Positions 25,194 through 37,469 are shown, counted from the first letter of the stretch. The stretch is DNA of 64,000 nucleotides from Bacteroidia bacterium (GCA_044239605.1 JBIIBC010000002.1:135441-199440), one strand, 5' to 3'. Notes: generated by a model from the sequence alone, not told the origin. A program made the numbers and translations.

Positions 25194-27332
25194 CTAAACC
25201 CCCTTCATACTCAAACTAATTCTTTTCCTTGCCAAATCAACTTCCATTACTTTTACTTGAACATGTTGTTGTAGTTTTACTACTTGGTTAGGATCTGAAA
25301 TATACTTATCGGCCATTTGCGATATATGAACCATTCCATCTTGTTTTACACCAATATCTACAAAACAACCAAACTTGGTAATATTAGTTACTATGCCTGG
25401 CAATATCATGCCTTCATTTAAATCTTCAGGTTTTTTAACATTAGCAAAAGTGAACGGTTTAAGGGTTTCCCTTGGGTCGCGGCCAGGTTTGGCTAACTCT
25501 TTTAAAATATCGTTGATGGTTAATAAACCTGCTGTTTGGGTTATATAATTTTCGGGCTTTATGTCCTTTCTTATCACTTCATTTTTTACCAAATCTTCTA
25601 CCTTACATCCATTTTGTTTGGCCATTTGCTCCACTATTACATAACTTTCAGGATGCACTGCACTGTTATCTAAGACATTTTTAGCATTAGGAATACGTAA
25701 AAAAGCTGCACATTGTTCAAACGTTTTTTCACCCAAACGTGGTATTTTTTTCAACTGACTGCGAGAGGTAAACGCCCCATGTTCATTCCTGAAATTAATA
25801 ATATTTTGAGCTGTTTGAGCACTTAAACCCGATACATAAGTAAGCAAACTTTTACTAGCAGTATTTAAGTTAACGCCCACTTGGTTTACACAACTTTGCA
25901 CCACCACATCCAAACTTTGTTTCAGTTTATTTTGATCTACATCGTGTTGGTACTGCCCCACTCCTATCGACTTAGCATCAATTTTTACCAACTCAGCTAA
26001 TGGATCGGCAAGCCTACGACCAATAGATACTGCACCGCGCACTGTTACATCTTTATCAGGAAATTCATCTCTGGCTACCTCGCTAGCTGAGTAAACCGAA
26101 GCACCATTTTCGTTCACCATAAAAAGTTGTGGTTCGTTTTTAAAATTGATGCCTCTTACCAAATCTTCTGTTTCGCGGCCCGCTGTTCCGTTGCCAATGG
26201 CAATAGCTTCTATATTGTATTTTTCAACCAAAAAAGTAAGCTTAGCTATGGCTTGTTGCGCATCGCGTTGCGGCTCGTGAGGATAAATAATATCATCGGC
26301 TAGTAACTTTCCTTCTTCATTTAAGCATACCACTTTACAGCCCGACCTAAAACCAGGATCTATGGCTAAAATACGCTTGCTACCCAAAGGTGCCGATAGT
26401 AATAATTGCTTTAAATTTTCGGCAAAAACCCTAATGGCTTCTTCATCGGCTTTGGCTTTGGCTAAGTTTCTAAACTCAGTTTCCATAGAAGGTGCCAACA
26501 ATCGTTTGTAAGCATCTTTCACCGCCAATTCTATTTGATAACTGCTATCGTTATTGCGTTTTATAAACTGAAAATCCAGTTTTTGAATAGCTATGTCTTC
26601 ATCAGGCTCAATATTCAATTTTAAAAAACCTTCTTCTTCGCCTCTAAACACCGCCAAAAGCCTGTGCGATGGACAACGATTCAAGGGTTCATCGTACTTA
26701 AAATAATCTTGGTATTTACTGCCTTCTGCTTCCTTGCCTTTAGCCACTTTGGTATAAACAATGGCATGTTTTTCAAACTGATTACGCACCAAGTTACGCG
26801 CTTTGGGATCTTCGTTTACCATTTCGGCTATAATATCTCTAGCGCCTTGCAATGCTTCGTCTTCGGTTTGCACCCCATTTTTTAAATAACGAGATGCCTC
26901 TATTTCTGCACTGTTGTAATTTTCTTTCAATAACCATAAAGCCAAAGGCTCCAAACCTTTTTCGCGGGCTATACTGGCCTTGGTTTTACGCTTAGGTTTA
27001 TAAGGTAAATATATATCCTCTAGCAAGTTCGTATCCCAACAATCTACAATACTTTTTTCCAAAGCAGGCGTTAGTTTTCCTTGCTCTTTTATGGTGTCTA
27101 TTATAGTGAGTTTGCGCTTAACTAACTCGGTATATTTTAAATTTAATAACCTGATGTTTTCAATATGTACTTCGTCTAAAGCCTGCGTAAGTTCCTTTCT
27201 GTATCGCGATATAAAAGGAACGGTGCTGCCTTCGTTTAATAATTTAATGGTAGCAGCTACTTGCCTAGCCTGAATACCAAGTTGCTGCGCAATAATGGCT
27301 ATAAAATCTGTTTCGTGCATAAAGAGGCACAA
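25194..27332 (-). CDS. tex: Transcription accessory protein Tex (HhH, YqgF and S1 domains)
   Basis: Tex-specific N-terminus, YqgF-like core, HhH region and C-terminal S1 domain (GMILPGIVTNITKFGCFVDIGVKQDGMVHISQMADKYISDPNQVVKLQQHVQVKVMEVDLARKRISLSMK). 712 aa. Confidence 0.9.
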   Translation of the reverse strand: MCLFMHETDFIAIIAQQLGIQARQVAATIKLLNEGSTVPFISRYRKELTQALDEVHIENIRLLNLKYTELVKRKLTIIDTIKEQGKLTPALEKSIVDCWDTNLLEDIYLPYKPKRKTKASIAREKGLEPLALWLLKENYNSAEIEASRYLKNGVQTEDEALQGARDIIAEMVNEDPKARNLVRNQFEKHAIVYTKVAKGKEAEGSKYQDYFKYDEPLNRCPSHRLLAVFRGEEEGFLKLNIEPDEDIAIQKLDFQFIKRNNDSSYQIELAVKDAYKRLLAPSMETEFRNLAKAKADEEAIRVFAENLKQLLLSAPLGSKRILAIDPGFRSGCKVVCLNEEGKLLADDIIYPHEPQRDAQQAIAKLTFLVEKYNIEAIAIGNGTAGRETEDLVRGINFKNEPQLFMVNENGASVYSASEVARDEFPDKDVTVRGAVSIGRRLADPLAELVKIDAKSIGVGQYQHDVDQNKLKQSLDVVVQSCVNQVGVNLNTASKSLLTYVSGLSAQTAQNIINFRNEHGAFTSRSQLKKIPRLGEKTFEQCAAFLRIPNAKNVLDNSAVHPESYVIVEQMAKQNGCKVEDLVKNEVIRKDIKPENYITQTAGLLTINDILKELAKPGRDPRETLKPFTFANVKKPEDLNEGMILPGIVTNITKFGCFVDIGVKQDGMVHISQMADKYISDPNQVVKLQQHVQVKVMEVDLARKRISLSMKGV

Positions 27333-27410
27333 TATAATTACAAATAAATAAAGGATAAAAATAATCTCTTTATATTAAGCGTAAATTATACAATCAATAA
27401 ATTAATTTAA

Positions 27411-28403
27411 TTAAAACAATGTATTAATTTCTGACAGACTAATGTTTTTTACATTATTTAAGTTTCTTTTAGAAACACCAAACAAATACGTTTTATCATA
27501 ATATAATAACATAGCCTCTGCCCAAGCTGATAAATTGTTTTCATCAAGCATTTGGATAGCTTGTCGAGTTCTCAAATCACCTAAACGTTTGTATAATTTT
27601 TGAGTAGATTGTTTCAATAATTCTTTATCAAAATGTCCATAATCATTAACAATATTTTGAACCCTTTGAACTAAGGGAACTTCTAAAAAGTAAAGTTTAT
27701 TATTACGTATTGCTTCATGAATTTTGGTTGGCACTTTACACCTACCTATAATATTACTTTCATCTTCCACCCAAATAGGTATTTGATTATTGAACAAATG
27801 AAGGGTTGTTGCAATTAAATTTTCAAACATCTCGTTTGTTGGTTGTTCGGGCATTCCCAAACTACCAAATGCTGAACCTCTATGATTGGCTATTCCTTCC
27901 AAGTCAAGAACTTGAATATTATTACTTTCTAATTTCTTTAAAATAGTTGTTTTACCACTTCCTGTATAACCACCTAATACATTGAATTTATAATCTGTTT
28001 CCAACTTATTTAAAACCCAATGTCTGAATTTTTTATAACCACCTTGCAATAAAAACACTTCAAAACCAGCAGTACTAAGAAGGTTTGCCATAATTTTACT
28101 TCTCAATCCTCCTCTATAACAATGAATAATTATCTTTTTGTTGGGAACTAATTTATAGGCTTGTTTTATGAGTAAATGAAATTGAGGGCCAATTAACTTA
28201 TAACCTAAAATAACAGCTGCCTCATGACCATTTTGTTTGTAACAAGTTCCTACTTCTTTGCGATGCTCGTTATTTAAAATTGGAAAATTAATAGCTCCTT
28301 GTATATGGCCTTGCTCAAACTCAATTGGTGCTCGCACATCAATTAAAGTGATTGTTTTTTTTAGTTCTAAAAGTGCTTCAATGCTATTAATAGGACTAAT
28401 CAT
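27411..28403 (-). CDS. mnmH: tRNA 2-selenouridine(34) synthase (rhodanese domain plus P-loop)
   Basis: N-terminal rhodanese with catalytic Cys (IIIHCYRGGLRS). Walker A motif GGYTGSGKT. Confidence 0.7.
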   Translation of the reverse strand: MISPINSIEALLELKKTITLIDVRAPIEFEQGHIQGAINFPILNNEHRKEVGTCYKQNGHEAAVILGYKLIGPQFHLLIKQAYKLVPNKKIIIHCYRGGLRSKIMANLLSTAGFEVFLLQGGYKKFRHWVLNKLETDYKFNVLGGYTGSGKTTILKKLESNNIQVLDLEGIANHRGSAFGSLGMPEQPTNEMFENLIATTLHLFNNQIPIWVEDESNIIGRCKVPTKIHEAIRNNKLYFLEVPLVQRVQNIVNDYGHFDKELLKQSTQKLYKRLGDLRTRQAIQMLDENNLSAWAEAMLLYYDKTYLFGVSKRNLNNVKNISLSEINTLF

Positions 28404-29058
28404 TTAATAAATAGGTTTTAGCTTGAGGACCTTGATTCATTAATAAATCAATGATGGATAAATTAGGTTGAAATGGATACTTTTCGGCAAATACTTGTAA
28501 ATACTTTTTTAAATTATTGCCTTCATTCTGCTCTTCCATATTTCTATTTTTTGCATCAAAAAAAATTCTCAAATCAATACCATTTTCTTTTACCACCTCA
28601 AAGTTTTGGGTATATAAAATTGGCTTTTCAACCTTAAGTAATTTTAGTACCAATACCAATAAATCACGGTTAAGTTCAAATAAATACTCATACTTTTTCT
28701 GGAAATAAAACGATTCAAAGTAATCTTTATAATGAAACCAAAAAGCTGACTTACCATAAGCTGATTGAAAGGCTAGCCAATGTTGTTTTTGCCAATCCTC
28801 TTCATAATTTATTATAACATCTTTAACTGCCTGTTTGGTATTATGAATTTTAACAACAGGAATACTCAATACTTGTATACCATTTGCACCTAATATTTTA
28901 CATCTATTGGTGTATGTTTGTTTTATATAGTTTTGACAAATTTCAACCACTATTTCATCAGCCAAAAGTACTTGTTTTATGTATGTTAAGTTGGGCAAAT
29001 AATTGCAAGGGAGAATTATGGACGAATTCAGGCTTTTAGCTCCTAGCTGCAGGCTCAT
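28396..29058 (-). CDS. WbqC-like family protein
   Basis: About 220 aa. Overall WbqC-like pattern, assigned by family recollection only. Overlaps mnmH by 8 bp. Confidence 0.4.
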   Translation of the reverse strand: MSLQLGAKSLNSSIILPCNYLPNLTYIKQVLLADEIVVEICQNYIKQTYTNRCKILGANGIQVLSIPVVKIHNTKQAVKDVIINYEEDWQKQHWLAFQSAYGKSAFWFHYKDYFESFYFQKKYEYLFELNRDLLVLVLKLLKVEKPILYTQNFEVVKENGIDLRIFFDAKNRNMEEQNEGNNLKKYLQVFAEKYPFQPNLSIIDLLMNQGPQAKTYLLND

Positions 29059-29139
29059 TGGTAAAAAAAATTAAGTTAAAAATTATACTTCGCAAAAATA
29101 AAATTGAAGAAATAAATAAGGCAATAAAAAGAAACTAAC

Positions 29140-29862
29140 TTAACCTAATAATTCGCCAACTTTATCCCAATTCAATACACTCCAAAACGCAGCTACATAA
29201 TCAGCTCGTTTATTTTGGTATTTTAAATAATAGGCATGTTCCCATATATCAAGAGCTATAATTGGAGTACCTAAATCTTTGATGATTCCTTTCATTAGCG
29301 GATTATCTTGATTTGGAGTACTTACTATTTTTAGTTTACCATCTTGTTTTATTAACCAAACCCAACCACTCCCAAAAGTACCCATTGCTGCTTTTGAAAA
29401 TTGTTGCTTAAAGTTTTCTAGGCTTTCAAAGTTTTCGTTAATTGCTTTTAGTGTTTTTTCACTAGGCTGAGTGTTGGTTTTTAAAAGACTCCAAAATAAA
29501 GTATGGTTATAATGACCACCTGCATTATTGCGCACTGCCGCTTTCAAATCGTTTGTAATTGTATTCAAATTTCCTAATACATCTTCTATGTTTTTAAATT
29601 TCCATGAAGTGATTTTTGCCTTAGCTTCATTCAATTTGGTTACATAAGCATTGTGATGCTTGGTGTAATGAATTTCCATGGTTTGTTTATCAATAAATGG
29701 CTCCAAGGCATCAAAACTATAGCCAAGTGGCATTAACATAAAATCGTTATTAAGCTGTGCTAAAACATTATTTATTTTTGCTTCAGTTTTTTCAGAATTT
29801 AACAAGGTAGCACCTGCCAATAATGCTGCCGATTTTACAAATGATTTACGTGATAATTTCAT
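29140..29862 (-). CDS. sodA: Fe/Mn superoxide dismutase with N-terminal export signal
   Basis: HYTKHH and DIWEHAYYL metal-ligand motifs. N-terminal SRKSFVKSAALLAGATLL looks like an RK-variant Tat or Sec signal. Confidence 0.85.
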   Translation of the reverse strand: MKLSRKSFVKSAALLAGATLLNSEKTEAKINNVLAQLNNDFMLMPLGYSFDALEPFIDKQTMEIHYTKHHNAYVTKLNEAKAKITSWKFKNIEDVLGNLNTITNDLKAAVRNNAGGHYNHTLFWSLLKTNTQPSEKTLKAINENFESLENFKQQFSKAAMGTFGSGWVWLIKQDGKLKIVSTPNQDNPLMKGIIKDLGTPIIALDIWEHAYYLKYQNKRADYVAAFWSVLNWDKVGELLG

Positions 29863-29913
29863 AATAATAAAAAAACGAATGTATTGTTATTTGAAGAATA
29901 AAAATTAAAAAAA

Positions 29914-31170
29914 TTATTTACTTCTAATTGCATCTACAGGATTTAACTTACTAGCACTTAATGCGGGCAAAAAGCCTGAAATAACGCCTATACAAATACT
30001 TGTTAAAACTCCAATTATGATATTTTTTAAACTTAAAAAAAACACCACCTGAAAAACTGCTCCCAATACAGCTATGATACCCCAAACCAATAACAAACCT
30101 ATGATACAGCCTAATAAGCACAAGATAACTGCTTCAATTAAAAATTCGATGAGAATAAAATAATTTTTAGCCCCTAAACTTTTTTGTATGCCTATTTGAT
30201 TGGTGCGTTCCTTAACACTTACAAACATAATATTGGCTATACCAAAACCACCCACTAGCATAGCAAATAAACCAATAATCCAACCCGCTATATTTACCGT
30301 TTTAAATGTTTGATCAAGTTGTTGGGTTATGAGTGTAATTTTATTCAATGCAAAATTTTCTTCTTGTCCTGGTCGTAACTTACGCTGGCTGCGCATGATT
30401 CCATTTAGCTCTTGCTCTAAGGCAGGAACTCCTGCCATACCTGCTTTTACATGTATTTTACTATTTACATCATCACTATTAATTCTAACAAATTTTGCGG
30501 CTGCATTTATTGGAATGATGATGGCATTATCCAAACTGTTTCCTATTAAACTTTCTCCCTCTTTGGCAAAAACACCAACCACACCAAATTTAGTTCCTGA
30601 AATTTTAATACTTTTATTTACGGCACCTACATTTGGAAACAATGTTTGAGCCAAGTTATATCCTATTAAACATATTAAATTTCCATTTTCCGATTCATTT
30701 TCGGTAAAATAACGACCATCAAATAAATTAAAGTTACGTACCAAATAATAATCATGAGTAACTCCTTGAATATCTATTCCTGTAGCGCTATTCAGTCCAT
30801 TTTTTATAGTTTTACCGCCAATGGTTATGGTTAACATTTCAGCACTCGACAATACCGATTTTTGTTCTATTGATTTTAACTCACTTAATGAAGCATTAGG
30901 GCGGCTAATGTATTTCCACCATTTATAACCTGGACCAAATGTCCAAGGCATTTTTTCAATAAATACCACATCATTTCCCAAACTTTCTACACTTTGATGT
31001 AAGTTATTTTCAAAACTTTCAACTACTGCTAATACTGCTATGATACAAAAAATTCCGATAGTTATACCTAAGGTAGAAAGCAACGTGCGAACCTTATTTA
31101 CATACATAGTATGCAGCGCAGCTATGGCACTTTCTTTTATTTGCGTAAATATTATCCTAAAGTTTTTCAT
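29914..31170 (-). CDS. ABC transporter permease (MacB/FtsX family)
   Basis: MacB_PCD-like periplasmic domain between TM1 and a C-terminal FtsX 3-TM bundle. Confidence 0.8.
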   Translation of the reverse strand: MKNFRIIFTQIKESAIAALHTMYVNKVRTLLSTLGITIGIFCIIAVLAVVESFENNLHQSVESLGNDVVFIEKMPWTFGPGYKWWKYISRPNASLSELKSIEQKSVLSSAEMLTITIGGKTIKNGLNSATGIDIQGVTHDYYLVRNFNLFDGRYFTENESENGNLICLIGYNLAQTLFPNVGAVNKSIKISGTKFGVVGVFAKEGESLIGNSLDNAIIIPINAAAKFVRINSDDVNSKIHVKAGMAGVPALEQELNGIMRSQRKLRPGQEENFALNKITLITQQLDQTFKTVNIAGWIIGLFAMLVGGFGIANIMFVSVKERTNQIGIQKSLGAKNYFILIEFLIEAVILCLLGCIIGLLLVWGIIAVLGAVFQVVFFLSLKNIIIGVLTSICIGVISGFLPALSASKLNPVDAIRSK

Positions 31171-31243
31171 TTAAATGTATTGTCAAAAATGAACTTTATA
31201 TAATCAATAAAAAAGTTATTTTGATAAAAGGAAATTTTAAGAG

Positions 31244-31420
31244 CTATTTTCCAATACTATCTTCTATGTTTCTTAGTTTTACTTCGCATAACTTTACTAA
31301 AGCCTTGGCTTCTATTAATTTTTGCGAAAGTGTTTCTAAATCTATTTCATTGTTTTCCATTTGCGCTACCATTTCCTCTAATTTCTGTTGCGCTTGGCTG
31401 TATGTTATTTCTTGTGACAT
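31244..31420 (-). CDS. xseB: Exodeoxyribonuclease VII small subunit. This ORF is absent from the supplied ORF track because it is only 58 aa.
   Basis: Reverse-strand translation MSQEITYSQAQQKLEEMVAQMENNEIDLETLSQKLIEAKALVKLCEVKLRNIEDSIGK matches the XseB pattern (TYEEA..LE.IV..ENNE.DLE.L...L..AK.L...C..KLR..E). Confidence 0.75.
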   Translation of the reverse strand: MSQEITYSQAQQKLEEMVAQMENNEIDLETLSQKLIEAKALVKLCEVKLRNIEDSIGK

Positions 31421-31575
31421 TGTTTATTTATTGATTTTTGATTTGGTGATTTATTGATTTTATTGTTGGATGGTTGAATTGTTTTATTGCTGAATTGTCG
31501 ATTCCTTATTGTCGATTGCTAATTACCTTTTGTTTATTACTAATTGCCTATTGTCAATTGCTTATTGCTTATTGA

Positions 31576-31746
31576 CTATTTAACATCCGAAACTACATTC
31601 ACAATTTTGGTATCTTTAATAAAAGTTTCTACTTTATCCGCTGGTTTGGATTTGTAATCCAAATCATTTACTGTAAGGATTTGTAATCCGCTTTTTACCG
31701 TGCTTAGAATAAAGCAAATATATAAATTGAAATTATATTTTTCGCA
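31576..31746 (-). pseudogene. xseA: Possible C-terminal remnant of exodeoxyribonuclease VII large subunit (xseA) lacking a start codon
   Basis: Reverse frame reads ...ILSTVKSGLQILTVNDLDYKSKPADKVETFIKDTKIVNVVSDVK*. An in-frame stop lies at 31747..31749 and there is no Met. This sits where xseA should precede xseB. The similarity call rests on the XseA C-terminal pattern only. Confidence 0.3.
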
Positions 31747-31768
31747 TTACAAATGCTTATAATACAAA

Positions 31769-31789
31769 GTGCGGTTTGCAAAACCGCAC
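31769..31789. other. GC-rich perfect hairpin gtgcggttt-gcaa-aaccgcac
   Basis: Seen directly. Unusual GC content for this genome. Confidence 0.6.
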
Positions 31790-31849
31790 CAGCTCGCAAG
31801 GTTAGCATATCTGCACAGGCTGGGCTTCAGATTTTCGCATTAACTAAAA

Positions 31850-31871
31850 CGGTCGGTAAAAATACCGACCG
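31850..31871. other. GC-rich perfect hairpin cggtcggta-aaaa-taccgaccg
   Basis: Seen directly. Confidence 0.6.
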
Positions 31872-31887
31872 CAGGCAAAATATACTT

Positions 31888-31980
31888 AGCATAAAGTATA
31901 TTATAATTAGCATAAAGCAAAATATACTTGGCATAAAGCCTTTTATATTGAGCATAAAGCAAAAAACACTCAGCATAAAG
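31888..31980 (+). repeat. Iteron-like array: five copies of (A/G)GCATAAAG at exact 21-bp spacing (31888, 31909, 31930, 31951, 31972)
   Basis: Seen directly. The spacers alternate as well, giving a 42-bp super-period (caaaatatactt / caaaaaacactc alternating with tatattataatt / ccttttatattg). Confidence 0.8.
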
Positions 31981-32141
31981 TAAATTTATATAAATGCTTG
32001 CCACTATTTAATAAGCCGTAATAGTACCTCCCCTATTTATGGTATAATTTATTTGATTTTTACTCATTAATTAACCATAAAACTAAAATCCAATATTTTA
32101 CAGTTTTTTTTATTGCCTCACAATTATAATATTGCAATCGC

Positions 32142-33824
32142 ATGAAAAAAGTACTACTTACTCTATCTAGTTACATGGTTTGCCTAACGTTTATTAGCGC
32201 TCAGGAGGGCGATAATAAAAAAGACAAGGGCGAATTTTCGGGGAACTTTCAAAACACCAACCAATTTTATGTAAACGATCCTAAAATTGGAACCAACACT
32301 ACTCAGTATAAACGCGAATTATCAAGTTCTGATGCTTGGCTTTATTTAAACTATAAATTGAAAGGGTTTAATTTTAACTTGCGATATGATGTGTTTAACA
32401 ACTCGCCATTATTTAACCCAAGCGAGGCTTTCACTAAAAGTGGAATTGGAATATGGAGCGTTAGCAAAGACATTGATAAATTCAATATAACAGTTGGTTA
32501 TTTTTACGACCAGTTTGGTACAGGAATGGTTTTTAGGGCTTTTGAAGATAGAAACTTAGGTTTAGATTTTGCCATAAATGGTGCAAGGGTTATATACACA
32601 CCCAATGAAAACACGCAAATTAAAGCCTTTACAGGTTTACAAAAATTTAGGTTTGATGTTCGTCCAGAGGTTATTAAAGGGTTAAATATTGAACATAGAA
32701 TTGAAGTAAACGATAACTTAAATTTTCAATTAGGTGCAAGTGCCGTAAATAGAACCATTGATCAGAATACCATGAATACTATAGTAGGCGCTATTAATAA
32801 TTATGAATTAAAGAATAGATTTATACCAACTTATAATGTGTATTTGGGAAATATTTACAATACGTTAAGCTATAAAAAATTCAGCTTATACACTGAGTAT
32901 TGCCAAAAAAGCCAAGAAGCAATATTTAATCCAATATTAGACAGAATGGAGCTAAGAGATGGCCGTGTTTATTATACTAGTTTATCTTATTCAACCAAAG
33001 GTTTAGGTATCAATGCACAATACAAACGCATCGAAAGTTTTTCACTTAGAACATCGCCATTAGAAAACTTAAACTTAGGTATGATTGCTTATTTACCAAG
33101 TTTAACCCGTCAGAATACTTATCGATTATTGGCTCGTTACAATGCAGTGGTTCAGGAGTTAGGCGAAAATGCAATAGGAATGGAGTTTACTATTAAACCA
33201 CAAGGAGCTTATTTTAAAAAGCATCAAACCACTATCAATATTAATACCAGTGTAGTTACAGCCAAAGATAATTTCGATTCAAAAAGTTTAAATCCTTTTG
33301 ATTTTGAAAAAGATACTGCTCGTTATTTTAGAGAGCATTATATTGATGTATCACATAAGTTCAATAAAAAGTTCAAAGCCATGTTGGGTTTTCAATACAT
33401 AAACTATAACCAACAATTATTTGAATTAAAACCTAAAAACTATGATTATGTAACTGCCAAAACATATTTTGGAGAAATTACTTATAAACTAACTTCTACT
33501 CGGTCACTAAGAGTAGAAGCACAATACCTTGAAACCAAACAAGATTTAGGAAGTTTTATAAATGGAACAGTGGAGTTAAATATTGCTCCTCATTACTCAT
33601 TTAGTGTAGGCGATATGGTAAATGTAAATAGGGTTATTAGAGATGCCAATGCTAGCCAAGATTTAATTCATTATTGGAATGTATTTGGAAGCTACACTTA
33701 CAAAACCACAAGGTTAACAGGTGGCTATATAAAACAAGTAGAGGGGGTGAATTGTACAGGTGGTGTTTGCCGCGTAGAGCCAGCATTTAGCGGAGTTAGG
33801 GTTACTTTACAAACTAATTTTTAA
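32142..33824 (+). CDS. Putative outer-membrane beta-barrel protein
   Basis: Signal peptide MKKVLLTLSSYMVCLTFISAQ. Alternating strands. C-terminal LQTNF. Confidence 0.5.
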   Translation: MKKVLLTLSSYMVCLTFISAQEGDNKKDKGEFSGNFQNTNQFYVNDPKIGTNTTQYKRELSSSDAWLYLNYKLKGFNFNLRYDVFNNSPLFNPSEAFTKSGIGIWSVSKDIDKFNITVGYFYDQFGTGMVFRAFEDRNLGLDFAINGARVIYTPNENTQIKAFTGLQKFRFDVRPEVIKGLNIEHRIEVNDNLNFQLGASAVNRTIDQNTMNTIVGAINNYELKNRFIPTYNVYLGNIYNTLSYKKFSLYTEYCQKSQEAIFNPILDRMELRDGRVYYTSLSYSTKGLGINAQYKRIESFSLRTSPLENLNLGMIAYLPSLTRQNTYRLLARYNAVVQELGENAIGMEFTIKPQGAYFKKHQTTININTSVVTAKDNFDSKSLNPFDFEKDTARYFREHYIDVSHKFNKKFKAMLGFQYINYNQQLFELKPKNYDYVTAKTYFGEITYKLTSTRSLRVEAQYLETKQDLGSFINGTVELNIAPHYSFSVGDMVNVNRVIRDANASQDLIHYWNVFGSYTYKTTRLTGGYIKQVEGVNCTGGVCRVEPAFSGVRVTLQTNF

Positions 33825-33834
33825 GATTCAAATT

Positions 33835-34746
33835 ATGAAAAATATAATTAAAATTTTTGTTGCAAGTTTATTTTTACTTTCAGCATGTAAAGAAGAAATT
33901 CCTACTGGGTTAAATTTAACGCCTGAACGAAGTGTATTCGATACCACTTATATTACCAATACCATTCCTGCACCTCAGCCTGCAAATGTTTATATTGAAG
34001 ATTTTACAGGCGTTAAATGTCCAAATTGTCCCAGAGCCCAAGCCACTGCAAAAAACATAGCTAATGCAAATCCTAATAGAGTTGTGGTAATGGCTATTCA
34101 TCCTGGGCCAAATATTCTCAATTTTTTTGTAAGCCCTTTTAAAACTCCTGGCGATGACCACGACAGTAAATATGACTTTAGAAGCAAAGAAGGTGGTGAT
34201 ATTTTTAATATTTTAGGAAGCTCAAGCTCTTTGCCTATTGGAGCCATTAATAGAATAAAATTTTCAGGTGAAAATGTATTGATTGATGACACTAAATGGA
34301 ACAATTACACCAATTCTATTTTGGCAAGTAATTCAAAAGTAAATATTGATACATTTGGTACTAAAGGCGTATATTTTGTAGAAGCTAATAAAATTAGAAT
34401 AAATACTAAAGTTACCTTCACTACCAATATAATTGATTCGCAATATGTAAGTATAGCAATTATTGAAAATGGTTTAATTGATTTTCAGAAAAGTGGTGGA
34501 AAAGTAATTGAAGATTACGAACACGAACATGTGCTAAGAAGAATGATTACACCTTCGACTGGAAGCCAATTAAAAGCACAAATTATAGCAGGTAGGGTTT
34601 TTGAGAAAACTTTTGATTATGAAATAGCAATTGAAGAAAAGTGGAATTCGAAAAATTTAAAGGTAATTATTTTTGTACATAATGGACCCGGAGGAACAGA
34701 ACCGTATAAAGTTTTACAAGTTAAAGAATATAAAATTAACGAATGA
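33835..34746 (+). CDS. Lipoprotein with CxxC motif (Omp28-related?)
   Basis: Lipobox LLSAC. CPNCP motif. About 300 aa. Confidence 0.4.
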   Translation: MKNIIKIFVASLFLLSACKEEIPTGLNLTPERSVFDTTYITNTIPAPQPANVYIEDFTGVKCPNCPRAQATAKNIANANPNRVVVMAIHPGPNILNFFVSPFKTPGDDHDSKYDFRSKEGGDIFNILGSSSSLPIGAINRIKFSGENVLIDDTKWNNYTNSILASNSKVNIDTFGTKGVYFVEANKIRINTKVTFTTNIIDSQYVSIAIIENGLIDFQKSGGKVIEDYEHEHVLRRMITPSTGSQLKAQIIAGRVFEKTFDYEIAIEEKWNSKNLKVIIFVHNGPGGTEPYKVLQVKEYKINE

Positions 34747-35333
34747 AAATAAGAAGTTTTGTTATTTTATACTTATTGGTATTATGCTCTTGTAATGGAA
34801 TTGATCAAGCTTATTTAGATTCCATTTTAGCGCATAGAAACAGCGCCAACCACACTTTTTTTGATGCTCAAACCACCCCACTTGATACCAATAAATTGAA
34901 AACATTTACTGGTTTAAAGTTTTTTGAAGTAAACCCAAATTATAAGGTTACTGCTACTTTAACTAAGTATGCCGATATGCCTCATTTTGAATTGCCTCAT
35001 TCGCACAATAGCACAAAACCTTACACGCAATATGGTAAAATCAATTTTACTTTAAATGGTAATAATTGTGAACTTACTGTACTAGAAGCCGTAAATAAAA
35101 AAGAAGAATATAAAAACTACTTGCTTATTTGTTTTACCGATTTAACCACCGGTACCGAAACTTATGGTGGAGGCCGTTATTTAGATATAGAAATACCTAA
35201 AAACAACTTGGTGGATATTGATTTTAACTTGGCTTATCATCCGTACTGTTTGTACAATAGCAATTTTACTTGCCCAATTCCTCCTAAAGAAAATTTTATA
35301 AATACTAGAATTGAAGCTGGCGAAAAACTTTAA
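34743..35333 (+). CDS. DUF1684 domain protein
   Basis: C-terminal motif LAYHPYCLYNSNFTCPIPPKENFINTRIEAGEK characteristic of DUF1684. Start overlaps the previous gene by 4 bp. Confidence 0.65.
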   Translation: MKIRSFVILYLLVLCSCNGIDQAYLDSILAHRNSANHTFFDAQTTPLDTNKLKTFTGLKFFEVNPNYKVTATLTKYADMPHFELPHSHNSTKPYTQYGKINFTLNGNNCELTVLEAVNKKEEYKNYLLICFTDLTTGTETYGGGRYLDIEIPKNNLVDIDFNLAYHPYCLYNSNFTCPIPPKENFINTRIEAGEKL

Positions 35334-35369: not shown

Positions 35370-37469
35370 CTAATCTTTTAAATACTTACCTAACCATTCA
35401 AAGAATACACGTTGCCAAAGCACACTATTTTGAGGCTTGGTAACCCAATGGTTTTCATCGGGGAAGTATAAAAATCTACTTGGAACTCCTTTTATTTGTG
35501 CAGCAGTAAATGCTTCCATTCCTTGTCCTAGCGGTACTCTAAAGTCCTTTTCATTATGTATTACTAAAATGGGTGAATCCCAGTTTTGAACAAACTTATG
35601 CGGAGAGGCATTAAAATTATTAGGGTTATCAGTTTGACTCCAATACGGTCCTTTATTGTCGTTATTGGCAAAATACATTTCTTCGGTGGTTCCATACCAA
35701 CTTTCCATGTTAAACATGCCACAATGAGCTATAAATGTTTTAAATCTTTTGTTATGATTACCTGCTAACCAATAAACTGAAAAGCCACCAAAGCTTGCTC
35801 CTACTGCGCCTAACTTATCTTTATTTACGTATGGCTCATTACTAATATCATCAATGGCACTAAAATAATCTTTCATACATTGTCCACCATAATCGCCTGT
35901 AATGGCATCGTTCCATTCACTTCCATGTCCTGGCATTCCGCGTCTGTTAGGTGCAATAACAATATAACCATTAGCGGCCATTAATTGAAAATTCCATCGG
36001 TAACTAAAAAACTGAGTCAAGGCACTTTGAGGTCCGCCTTGACAATAAAGTAATGTTGGATATTTTTTAGTGGCATCAAAGTTTGGCGGATAAATAACCC
36101 AACTTAGCAAGTCTTTTCCATCAGTAGTTTTAGTGATTCTTTTTTCTACTTTACCCATTTTAACTTCATCTAAAATAGCCTTGTTGGTAAAAGTAATTTG
36201 CTTTTCTGTTTTACTTTTTGGATCAATAATAAATAGTTCGGTAGGCATGCTAATCGACATTCTTGAACCTAATAGCATTGTTTTTTTACCAATTTTATAA
36301 ACTGAAACTGAAGTGTAATCATGATCACCATTAGTAATTTTTTCAGGATATTTATTGTTTGCAATTCTAAAATCATTGGTATAATAAATTTGCTTAGTAC
36401 CTTTATCAATAACGATGTAATAAAAACTTAAATCACTGTCAAATTCAAAGTTTTCAATATGTAAATCTTTAACTGGTGAACCTGTCAATTCAAATCTAAT
36501 CACTGGTGTTTTCTCTCCTCTTATCATTTCATAATTTGTATCAATTGGTAAATCCAACACACAAATTCTCTGATTGTCACTTTCATTTCCTGCTCCAATC
36601 ATTTGCAGCCAAGCTATTTTATTACCACTTGGCGAATATTTAGGATTGCGATCATAGCCTTTATTGCTTGCTGAAAGATTCAAAGTTTTTTGTGTCAATA
36701 AGTCATATTCGTAAATATCGCTATTGGTTGAAATGGCCTCGGCAGTTCCAGATAATTTCCTGCTATTGTAAGCTAATTTTGTTCCATCAGGACTCCAATT
36801 AAATTCATCATCATCGCCATGTGGTTGTAAAGGACAATCAAATTTTTCATCCTTCATAATATCTAATGCATAGCCATTAGTTTCTCCATTTGAATAAGGT
36901 ATAATAAACAAATGACTGTACGCATAATCGTGCCAACTATCCCAGTGGCGGTAAAATAATCCATCAATAATTCTTGCATTGCATTTATCCAAATCAGGGT
37001 AAATTTCTTTTACTTCTTTATCCAGTTTCACATCTGCCGTAAAAGCTATGTGTTTCATTATTGGTGAATACTTATAACCACTTATTCCTCCATTAAAATT
37101 AGTAACTTTGGTTTTATTGCTTCCGTCCAAATTCATTTCCCAAAGTTGCACATCACCGCTTTTAGCACTCAAAAAACTAATTTTATTTCCAATGGGTGTG
37201 AATCGTGCACCAAATGCATTTAAATCCCCATCAGTCAATACAGTTTTATTTTCACCATTGATGGTAATACTGTAAATAATGTTAGTGCTTTTATTGGTTT
37301 TAATACTGTAATTTCTTACACTATAAATAACGGTTTTTCCATCATTCGAAACTTGAGCATCAGCCACGCGGCCTAGCTGCCAAAGGTTATCAATAGTAAG
37401 GTTTTGTTGTGCCATAGCAGTATATAAGCTACAAAAAAGAAATAAAAATTTAAAAATAGATTTTATCAT
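35370..37469 (-). CDS. S9 family serine peptidase (prolyl oligopeptidase / DPP-like) with N-terminal beta-propeller
   Basis: Signal peptide. Propeller repeats. Catalytic GASFGGFSV (G-x-S-x-G-G). Catalytic Asp/His present in the C-terminal alpha/beta-hydrolase region. Confidence 0.85.
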   Translation of the reverse strand: MIKSIFKFLFLFCSLYTAMAQQNLTIDNLWQLGRVADAQVSNDGKTVIYSVRNYSIKTNKSTNIIYSITINGENKTVLTDGDLNAFGARFTPIGNKISFLSAKSGDVQLWEMNLDGSNKTKVTNFNGGISGYKYSPIMKHIAFTADVKLDKEVKEIYPDLDKCNARIIDGLFYRHWDSWHDYAYSHLFIIPYSNGETNGYALDIMKDEKFDCPLQPHGDDDEFNWSPDGTKLAYNSRKLSGTAEAISTNSDIYEYDLLTQKTLNLSASNKGYDRNPKYSPSGNKIAWLQMIGAGNESDNQRICVLDLPIDTNYEMIRGEKTPVIRFELTGSPVKDLHIENFEFDSDLSFYYIVIDKGTKQIYYTNDFRIANNKYPEKITNGDHDYTSVSVYKIGKKTMLLGSRMSISMPTELFIIDPKSKTEKQITFTNKAILDEVKMGKVEKRITKTTDGKDLLSWVIYPPNFDATKKYPTLLYCQGGPQSALTQFFSYRWNFQLMAANGYIVIAPNRRGMPGHGSEWNDAITGDYGGQCMKDYFSAIDDISNEPYVNKDKLGAVGASFGGFSVYWLAGNHNKRFKTFIAHCGMFNMESWYGTTEEMYFANNDNKGPYWSQTDNPNNFNASPHKFVQNWDSPILVIHNEKDFRVPLGQGMEAFTAAQIKGVPSRFLYFPDENHWVTKPQNSVLWQRVFFEWLGKYLKD

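Follow-up and report, generated by a model that had tools for sequence, protein, structure and literature searches.

Results

Genes and features at the xseB locus

The window, that is, the whole 64,000-nucleotide stretch of DNA analysed here (Bacteroidia bacterium, GCA_044239605.1, JBIIBC010000002.1:135441-199440), carries xseB, which encodes the small subunit of exonuclease VII, and a three-gene envelope cluster on opposite strands. The DNA between them comprises a low-complexity spacer, a remnant of xseA, a palindrome-rich element (referred to as element E), two GC-rich hairpins and an array of 21-bp repeats (Table 1). Homologous loci in other assemblies are denoted L001, L002 and so on, and those with the order xseB, E, array and DUF6029 are referred to as scar contigs or scar haplotypes.

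Table 1. Positions of the features at and around the xseB locus (coordinates refer to the window)
Feature	Position	Strand	Basis or remark
SelU-WbqC-SOD-MacB permease-xseB with spacer and xseA 3' end	27463..31638	-	collinear with relatives having an intact xseAB
xseB, exonuclease VII small subunit, intact, 58 aa	31244..31420	-	Pfam PF02609 Exonuc_VII_S
xseA-xseB spacer, low-complexity, CAAT-rich, 7/21-bp periodicity	31421..31575	-	repeat families D2, D3
xseA remnant, last 23 codons and stop	31576..31647	-	tblastn, XseA residues 354-376 of 376
Element E, ~155 bp, palindrome-rich, inverted-repeat ends	31640..31793	.	left end, proposed breakpoint; right end, hairpin 1
Two GGATTTGTAATCC palindromes in E	31648-60 and 31677-89		sequence
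Hairpin 1, terminator-like stem-loop followed by TTTGTATT	31769..31789	-	9-bp perfect arms 31769-77/31781-89
Hairpin 2, strong terminator-like stem-loop followed by TTTTAGTT	31850..31871	-	9-bp perfect arms 31850-58/31863-71
Minisatellite, five AGCATAAAG cores with 12-bp spacers, ending in AGCATAAAGTAAATTTATATAAATGCTT	31875..31999	.	21-bp units
Proximal upstream region of the DUF6029 operon	32084..32141	+	100% identical over 58-63 bp to L030 and L075
DUF6029 outer-membrane protein, Omp28-like lipoprotein, DUF1684	32142..35333	+	Pfam; proposed non-inverted side of the junction

The xseB product matches its Pfam family with an E value of 1.3e-10 (41.5 bits, cut-off 24), in agreement with an earlier note on this DNA, made from the sequence alone, in which the gene was read as intact. 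The protein is identical in L005 and L008, two relatives with an intact xseA, and the window xseB is identical to that of L005 also at the nucleotide level. Compared with the sister MAG GCA_049240025.1 (L075), eight nucleotide differences are located in synonymous and two in non-synonymous codons, and xseB is intact and conserved in both of the putatively inverted lineages (see below).

To search for xseA, four XseA proteins (three close and one distant) were used as tblastn queries against the whole window. The three close queries matched only 31647..31579, corresponding to residues 354-376 (best E value 1.3e-4, 70% identity), and the distant query gave nothing significant. The lack of xseA beside xseB, which the earlier note had pointed out, consequently applies to all 64 kb except for this remnant. 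There are 56 in-frame codons between the stops at 31747-31749 and 31576-31578; as described before, an in-frame stop is located at 31747 and a start codon is lacking. The 56-residue translation has no Pfam match (the XseA families being PF02601/PF13742), and a functional full-length xseA, which requires the OB-fold, catalytic, helical XseB-binding and C-terminal domains, is not present at the locus. The earlier estimate of an approximately 45-codon XseA-like remnant is correct in that the XseA C-terminus is genuine, but it covers 23 codons only (31579..31647) and the rest belongs to element E; the possibility that the remnant bears no similarity to XseA can be dismissed given the match over these last 23 codons. 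As had been proposed, the locus represents a genuine rearrangement junction; xseA is gone beside an intact xseB, and a true 3' remnant is in place.

At the DNA level, homology to the intact xseA of relatives stops at ~31638-31647. Over 62 bp, the remnant has 91.9% identity with the xseA 3' end of L074, and it falls inside a block of 96% identity common to the window and the intact-operon contig L014, while remnant and spacer together are 79% identical to L073 over 111 bp. The L014 block extends over 27463..31638 (96.15% identity over 4182 bp), with 96-99% identity in most 300-bp intervals and 86% in the last, which covers the spacer; in 11 of the 14 intervals the window is closer to L014 than to the scar haplotype L001. 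No synteny with L014 was detected beyond this block on either side. Since synteny with the intact-operon relatives also stops inside the 3' end of selU, at ~27463, at least one further rearrangement is required, and the history of the region involves more than a single inversion. The spacer, in which TRF reports periods of 7, 14 and 21, is kept, with indels, in intact-operon relatives, and its xseB-distal part also follows the intact xseA in L073. Upstream of xseB it extends to ~69 bp in L075, and at the L073 junction the boundary lies at ~42 bp.

Element E

Element E has an inverted repeat (I1) with 51-nt arms and 71% complementarity, and a direct repeat (D7); its core is AT-rich and includes a TAnnTTTG box at 31722..31715 (-). 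When folded as a single strand, E is predicted to form a series of stem-loops (-40.8 kcal/mol, z -4.8). Only one copy is present in the window. Homologues are located ~200-350 bp upstream of the intact xseA in L013 and L014, and in L030 a copy that is inverted relative to the window lies beside a longer version of the array upstream of DUF6029; part-copies were found in L073 and L082, those in L082 being fragments upstream of DUF6029. Upstream of xseA in L074 and L073, E is absent and other hairpin-rich sequence is found in its place, and intergenic palindrome clusters therefore appear to turn over fast. Comparing L014/L013 (E present) with L074/L073 (E absent) indicates replacement of a whole segment, not a clean insertion, with no target-site duplication that can be defined, and no transposase or rep gene was found among the neighbours of E. 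E may be regarded as a REP/MITE-like palindrome cluster, and its occurrence upstream of DUF6029 in L030 and L082 indicates that it is native and not imported.

The Bacteroidetes -7 consensus is TAnnTTTG. A candidate box of this type, TATATTTG at 31722..31715 (-) inside E, is the sole canonical match in the 760 bp searched, and as one match in 760 nt is close to the chance rate it constitutes a weak promoter lead. On reading the aligned sequences by eye, the box was also seen in the E copies of L030 and L014 and was absent from the L013 copy.

GC-rich hairpins

The two hairpins are at the positions given by the earlier note and are unusual in this DNA: across the whole window, just four perfect hairpins contain GC and have stems of 8 bp or more, and these are two of them. 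Predicted folding energies are -14.4 kcal/mol (z -2.6) for hairpin 1 and -17.6 kcal/mol (z -5.9) for hairpin 2, which is predicted to be much more stable than shuffled sequence. On the minus strand a T-run follows each of them, a feature that the earlier note had missed, and both were flagged on that strand in a search that gave three terminator-like sites in 1.2 kb (0.6 expected). In L073, hairpin 1 recurs ~110 bp past the 3' end of a CHU_C gene on the minus strand, and in the other scar haplotypes it is weakened by a 1-nt deletion. At the top of the hairpin 2 stem the window has an A-T pair, which is replaced by G-C in L001, L002, L004, L006 and L007, i.e., a compensatory change; in L075 this hairpin is 95% identical and located ~155 bp past the stop codon of a minus-strand DUF4114/DUF4842 gene. 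In the window there is no gene upstream of either hairpin on their strand.

We therefore regard both as predicted intrinsic terminators, native to intergenic DNA and now positioned upstream of xseB on its strand, where they may be orphaned or may insulate xseB from upstream transcription. With terminator-like hairpins in this position, it would follow that xseB requires a separate promoter downstream of both. Presumably, transcription of xseB starts from a promoter inside or downstream of E, with TATATTTG as the candidate -7 box.

The 21-bp array

The five cores of the array were described earlier as identical copies with 21-bp phasing. The exact 21-bp spacing (31888..31980) holds, but the third core is GGCATAAAG and not AGCATAAAG. 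The two-core phased pattern has four matches (0.03 expected), and the 9-mer core occurs five times in the window (1.1 expected), with four of the five occurrences in the array. TRF reports periods of 21 and 42. Two overlapping minus-strand ORFs run through the array and are repeat artefacts; likewise, a 58-aa ORF predicted in four scar contigs was rejected as a gene, three of the six frames being open merely because the unit is repeated. The array is 100% identical in all scar haplotypes; this was not taken as a sign of special conservation, as the locus is a mosaic with other 100% identical blocks.

The search for other copies that the earlier note had suggested was conducted across genomes. 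A scan for three phased GCATAAAG cores, using one genome per prokaryotic species, gave 55 loci, of which 52 were discarded as unrelated, being (GCATAAA)n microsatellites or 21-bp repeats of another kind. The only true relatives of the array among them are L030, L045 and L069, with 10, 10 and 12 units, respectively. L030 (upstream of DUF6029) and L045 (upstream of a gene for a small secreted protein) belong to MAG D4_MAG_00032, and L069 (upstream of an amino-acid permease gene) to MAG RE-27jun17-99, such that the family comprises 37 units at four loci in three genomes, window included. The arrays of L030, L045 and L069 have spacer classes in common with the window; three or four such classes recur in a set order in each, TRF periods in L030 being 21, 42 and 84, and all four arrays end in the motif AGCATAAAGTAAATTTATATnnATGCTT. 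Three of the four loci have a conserved right flank (~130-180 bp in L045 and L069, shorter in L030), which the window lacks. A scan of metagenomes for the terminal motif and two scans of viruses gave no matches. Upstream of DUF6029 in other relatives there are unrelated tandem arrays (L082, 14/28 bp; L086, 43 bp x 9; L090, 114 bp x 3.3). In Segatella copri (L049), GGATTGCAAATCC hairpins located close to a 21-bp array resemble a tRNA-Cys anticodon arm and were taken as coincidental.

The label "iteron" is not supported. Phased repeats are present, but there is no rep gene near the array (its neighbours are xseB, MacB, DUF6029, Omp28 and DUF1684) and no DnaA box TTATCCACA with at most one mismatch between 30536 and 36984; with 31% GC in the window overall, the AT-richness beside the array is not distinctive. 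Since, in addition, a longer array lies upstream of DUF6029 in L030, the earlier suggestion that an iteron or regulatory module had been brought in is not upheld. The description that fits best is a dispersed minisatellite family with variable copy number, of which the array is one member and which appears native to promoter-upstream regions, in this case to the region upstream of DUF6029. A search of the region against Rfam 15 gave a best score of 25.4 bits (cut-off 46), and nothing was found for L069. It is rather unlikely, but conceivable, that the AGCATAAAG arrays represent a previously undescribed dispersed cis-element of an uncultured freshwater Bacteroidia lineage, which might offer phased binding sites upstream of promoters to a DNA-binding protein particular to this lineage, or else might encode a minus-strand small RNA with a repeated motif, ended by hairpin 2.

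Scar contigs and a sister genome

The xseB, E, array and DUF6029 architecture is present in contigs from six samples processed with different pipelines, at 94-100% identity, and identity across the locus among the haplotypes is mosaic with several 100% blocks. The sister MAG L075 is ~94% identical to the window on both flanks, and here also xseB faces DUF6029 without xseA. Between the two genes L075 has a 671-aa DUF4114/DUF4842 gene on the minus strand, hairpin 2 and a collapsed E, and it has neither the xseA remnant nor the array; homology with the window resumes at 32084. These differences indicate that the junction has been remodelled since the proposed inversion. The comparison of synteny, which the earlier note had recommended, thus revealed an arrangement common to many independent assemblies and to a ~94% identical sister MAG. 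The earlier note had also considered that an intact xseA might exist at another locus with the region syntenic in relatives, and this is essentially what was found, as an intact xseA was seen in the same samples as scar contigs.

Ancestral and derived gene adjacencies

Comparing separate contigs, all four adjacencies of an inversion, two ancestral and two reciprocal derived, are present with flipped orientation. The first ancestral junction (a|b), with an intact xseA-xseB-MacB-SOD-WbqC-SelU order and an xseA of 376 aa, is found in L013, L014, L015 and L074 and is partly visible in L005 and L008. The second (c|d) is represented by L086 and, in part, by L084. Here, an inversion predicts uvrB directly 5' of DUF6029 on the same strand, and this is the order that was observed. 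A query of metagenomes with the DUF6029 protein gave 15 loci, and in all of them the DUF6029-Omp28-DUF1684 cluster is conserved as far as the contigs reach; the three-gene envelope cluster of the earlier note is confirmed by the Pfam matches of its members.

In the first derived junction (a|c') an intact 376-aa xseA (P0013) is followed by the spacer and by uvrB on the opposite strand. It was found in L072, L073, L077 and L078, and none of these xseA loci has an xseB. The DNA 5' of xseA in L073 matches the same region of the intact operon in L074, the uvrB proteins of L086 and L073 are 94.5% identical, and TPR-LpoB-AhpC-uvrB of L086 is collinear with L072 but inverted. The second derived junction (b'|d) is that of the window and of L001-L004, L006 and L007 (94-100% identity), together with L075. 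P0013 was read in four samples, three of which (3300045490, ERR5954490 and SRR27421862) also have scar contigs; for L003, the contig from SRR27421862, a comparison with the window over 1,300 bp gave 100% identity. Approximately 190 bp, equivalent to 31460..31647 in the window (xseA codons 354-376 and most of the spacer), are present at both derived junctions. The uvrB-DUF6029 intergenic DNA of L086 and L084 is too diverged from the window and L073 for mapping the breakpoint at the base level. A GC-skew switch at the junction was considered and is uninformative, since the skew tracks the coding strand.

With all four junction types present, an inversion best explains the event. We propose that the ancestral chromosome had the order CHU_C< xseA> xseB> MacB> SOD> WbqC> SelU> and, elsewhere, TPR-LpoB-AhpC-uvrB> (intergenic terminators/repeats) DUF6029> Omp28> DUF1684>. 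Inversion of the segment from xseB to uvrB would then have generated two new junctions, xseA>|<uvrB at the end opposite from the window (L072/L073) and MacB< xseB<|>DUF6029, which is the window. On the xse side the break would be near the xseA 3' end and the xseA-xseB spacer, and on the other side at the left end of E. The ~190 bp now at both junctions (beginning at xseA codon 354 and reaching a point ~42 bp upstream of xseB) might have been duplicated through staggered breaks at the inversion or through a later recombination tract from an intact-operon strain. The scar beside xseB would accordingly mark one end of a chromosomal inversion by which the xseAB operon was split and which segregates as a polymorphism within an uncultured, AT-rich (31% GC) freshwater Bacteroidia population; we put the probability of this reading at about 0.78. 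Given the 96% identical L014 block, the closer relationship to L014 than to L001 in most intervals, and the xseB shared with L005, intact and rearranged forms appear to coexist in one recombining population.

Alternative explanations

The most serious competitor retains the inversion and differs as to when the remnant arrived. According to this explanation, which we consider possible but less probable, no more than ~45-70 bp of spacer stayed at the junction at first, a state resembling that of L075, and the remnant was imported later with a tract from an intact-operon strain that was anchored by xseB-SelU homology and ended illegitimately at E. The spacer limits in L075 and L073 (~69 and ~42 bp upstream of xseB) would correspond to a nearly conservative break, and the closeness of the block to L014 relative to other inverted haplotypes, the xseB identity with L005, and the higher identity of the remnant to L074 (92% over 62 bp) and L014 than of remnant and spacer to L073 all point in the same direction; the latter pattern is not predicted by a simple duplication at the event unless gene flow followed. 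However, an extra illegitimate join is required, the same similarities would arise if the remnant dates from the inversion and was subsequently homogenised by homologous exchange with intact strains, and L075 may have lost its remnant on gaining the 671-aa gene. The earlier note had instead proposed a deletion or insertion that removed xseA, in which case xseB would be a decaying relic beside a scar. We regard true gene loss as improbable: the 64-kb window has no xseA apart from the 23 codons, but an intact xseA without xseB adjoins the inverted uvrB at the reciprocal junction (L072/L073) in the same samples, the orientation of the uvrB side is precisely that expected from an inversion, and xseB is intact with mostly synonymous differences across both inverted lineages.

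Disruption of xseA by a mobile element, either E acting as a MITE or a larger unit including the array and the envelope genes, is very unlikely, even though E has inverted-repeat ends, sits exactly at the breakpoint and occurs, in either orientation, at several loci. Such an insert would be expected to have the 5' part of xseA at its far end, and tblastn detected no such piece in the 32 kb to the right; xseA at the other junction is full length and not truncated, E and the array are native upstream of DUF6029 in other genomes, and there is no transposase or rep gene among the neighbours, a single copy of E in the window and no definable target-site duplication. Nor do we favour E as an invertible promoter switch that drives xseB or the DUF6029 operon by phase variation, an idea slightly less probable still. 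It could draw on the inverted-repeat ends, on the opposite orientations of E to DUF6029 in the window and L030 and on the -7-like box (in the window and, by reading, in the L030 and L014 copies), yet E has one and the same orientation in the window and in the five scar contigs aligned with it, no recombinase gene is nearby, and the flanks of E differ between L030 and the window, which is not compatible with a simple flip. As repeats and hairpins do occupy the junction, a chimeric assembly join was also considered; its probability is negligible, given the same junction in at least seven independent assemblies from different pipelines (JGI, ENA, Logan). Among these explanations, the inversion that split xseAB is the one we prefer.

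Discussion

Exonuclease VII requires both subunits, and the E. coli enzyme has the composition XseA4.XseB24 (PMC10835039). In the organism studied here, the data suggest that xseA was relocated and not lost; because the reciprocal junction and the scar contigs occur in the same samples, and because the one junction of an inversion entails the other, an intact copy very probably survives in the same genome. Exonuclease VII would then probably still be produced, from two unlinked genes. In E. coli K-12, xseA and xseB are unlinked, with xseB in the xseB-ispA-dxs operon and xseA elsewhere, and a split arrangement is therefore workable. The likeness to E. coli K-12 lies in the separate loci of the two subunit genes; the separation here, however, appears recent and polymorphic, relatives that are 96-99% identical in most of the block keep the operon, and a 23-codon xseA stub persists.

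The staggered-break model for Drosophila inversions accounts for inverted duplications at the breakpoints. As in inversions of this kind and in those that split operons, there are two reciprocal junctions, flipped genes and ~190 bp that are present at both junctions in inverted orientation. In contrast to such inversions, the breakpoints showed neither long inverted repeats nor IS elements or rRNA operons, and the duplication may stem from later recombination.

The hairpins, E and the array each have counterparts among known elements. With a GC-rich perfect stem, a short loop and a T-run the hairpins resemble Rho-independent terminators, which usually follow a gene; in the window there is no same-strand gene upstream, whereas hairpin 2 is downstream of a gene in L075. 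E, being ~155 bp in size with stem-loops and inverted-repeat ends, is similar to REP/BIME or to the Correia elements of Neisseria (about 100-160 bp), which have inverted-repeat ends and carry terminators or promoters, and like REP/BIME and MITEs it is dispersed intergenically in both orientations and found at rearrangement boundaries. It differs in that only a handful of copies was seen, with one in 64 kb, and in that neither a target-site duplication nor a partner transposase was identified. The array shares with plasmid and phage iterons the direct repeats of ~21 bp, the exact spacing of two helical turns and the conserved core, but it is chromosomal, has no rep gene or DnaA box and reaches up to 12 units upstream of unrelated genes, and its spacers give higher-order periods of 42/63/84 bp that are typical of minisatellite expansion. 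The import of a module, as suggested in the earlier note, does not agree with hairpin 2 being common to the sister L075 and E being native to the DUF6029 side elsewhere. As judged from sequence comparisons, the hairpins and repeats are probably ordinary native intergenic features and not an imported module.

Taken together, the locus appears to represent an ordinary rearrangement that is now well resolved. Some potential for novelty is confined to the family of dispersed 21-bp arrays, the rest being ordinary biology. A lone xseB beside an xseA stub would be annotated as loss of exonuclease VII, while the comparison suggests that the enzyme is probably intact and encoded at two loci; reciprocal junctions in public metagenome assemblies can in this way resolve an apparent scar into what would be an inversion polymorphic in a natural population.

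Synteny breakpoints around the shared block

The alignment of the window with two relatives that carry an intact xseA-xseB operon, L014 and L074, ends ~45 bp short of the selU stop codon. SelU is 330 aa long in the window versus 338 aa in L014 and L074, and the gene that follows selU is Tex in the window versus a 317-aa gene and TGT in these two relatives. The selU 3' end is a second synteny breakpoint, which bounds the 4.2-kb block shared with the intact-operon relatives. In the sister MAG GCA_049240025.1 (L075) a 671-aa DUF4114/DUF4842 gene is present between xseB and DUF6029, in the place that is occupied by the ~155-bp palindrome-rich element E and the 21-bp array in the window; this junction region was remodelled independently.

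Positions of the features compared
Feature	Sequence	Position	Description
xseA-xseB spacer	window	31421-31575	CAAT-rich low-complexity tract, 7/21-bp periodicity
selU region	window	27332-27520	selU 3' end and junction with Tex
DUF4114/DUF4842 gene	L075	3963-5978
uvrB-DUF6029 intergenic region	L086	6320-6720	43-bp unit GTGCGGAATGGTATATCCAATTTTTGCTATAGGTATCTGCACA, ~9 copies
Spacer 3' of relocated xseA	L073	4300-4450	extra GC-rich palindromes, e.g. CCCGAAAGCTTTCGGG
Hairpin region	L049 (Segatella copri)	2350-2740	three, of form GCGGATTGCAAATCCGC
xseA-xseB and neighbouring genes	L009	2014-7489
xseA-xseB and neighbouring genes	L071	952-6639

Repeats and GC-rich hairpins in intergenic DNA

Relatives keep the CAAT-rich xseA-xseB spacer, with indels, and heptamer tracts like those of the spacer, e.g. 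(CTAAGAA)n, were also seen upstream of xseA in L013 and L014 (intact operons). Among the relatives carrying the DUF6029 locus, the tandem array that fills the region between uvrB and DUF6029 in L086 has its place taken by a 114-bp x 3.3 array in L090 and by a 14/28-bp array in L082.

The palindromes gained by the L073 spacer resemble a hairpin, TCCCGATAGCTATCGGGA, that precedes xseA in L013 and L014, and GC-rich hairpins form a small family dispersed across the intergenic DNA of the window's lineage. The Segatella copri hairpins look like a tRNA-Cys anticodon arm, and their palindrome core is similar to those of element E; ~230 bp from them is an unrelated 21-bp tandem array with GCATAAAG.

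Mosaic identity and variable xseAB surroundings

Comparison of window 33050-34900 and 36200-36650 with L001, a metagenome contig with the scar haplotype, revealed strongly mosaic identity: the DUF6029 3' part, Omp28 and DUF1684 are ~100% identical, while within the S9 peptidase gene identity is just 53-64% along ~450 bp. This mosaic pattern suggests that recombination is frequent and that one segment is hypervariable. In L001 (5239 region, corresponding to window 32142) DUF6029 starts with ATT rather than ATG, and the gene caller predicts a shorter product there, 549 aa versus 560 aa.

In the more distant relatives L009 and L071, a mutagenesis cassette encoding LexA-like (HTH/S24), ImuB-like (IMS) and DnaE2-like proteins is positioned directly upstream of xseA-xseB, and arginase, rpsP and rimM come after. 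The surroundings of xseAB are highly variable within the group.
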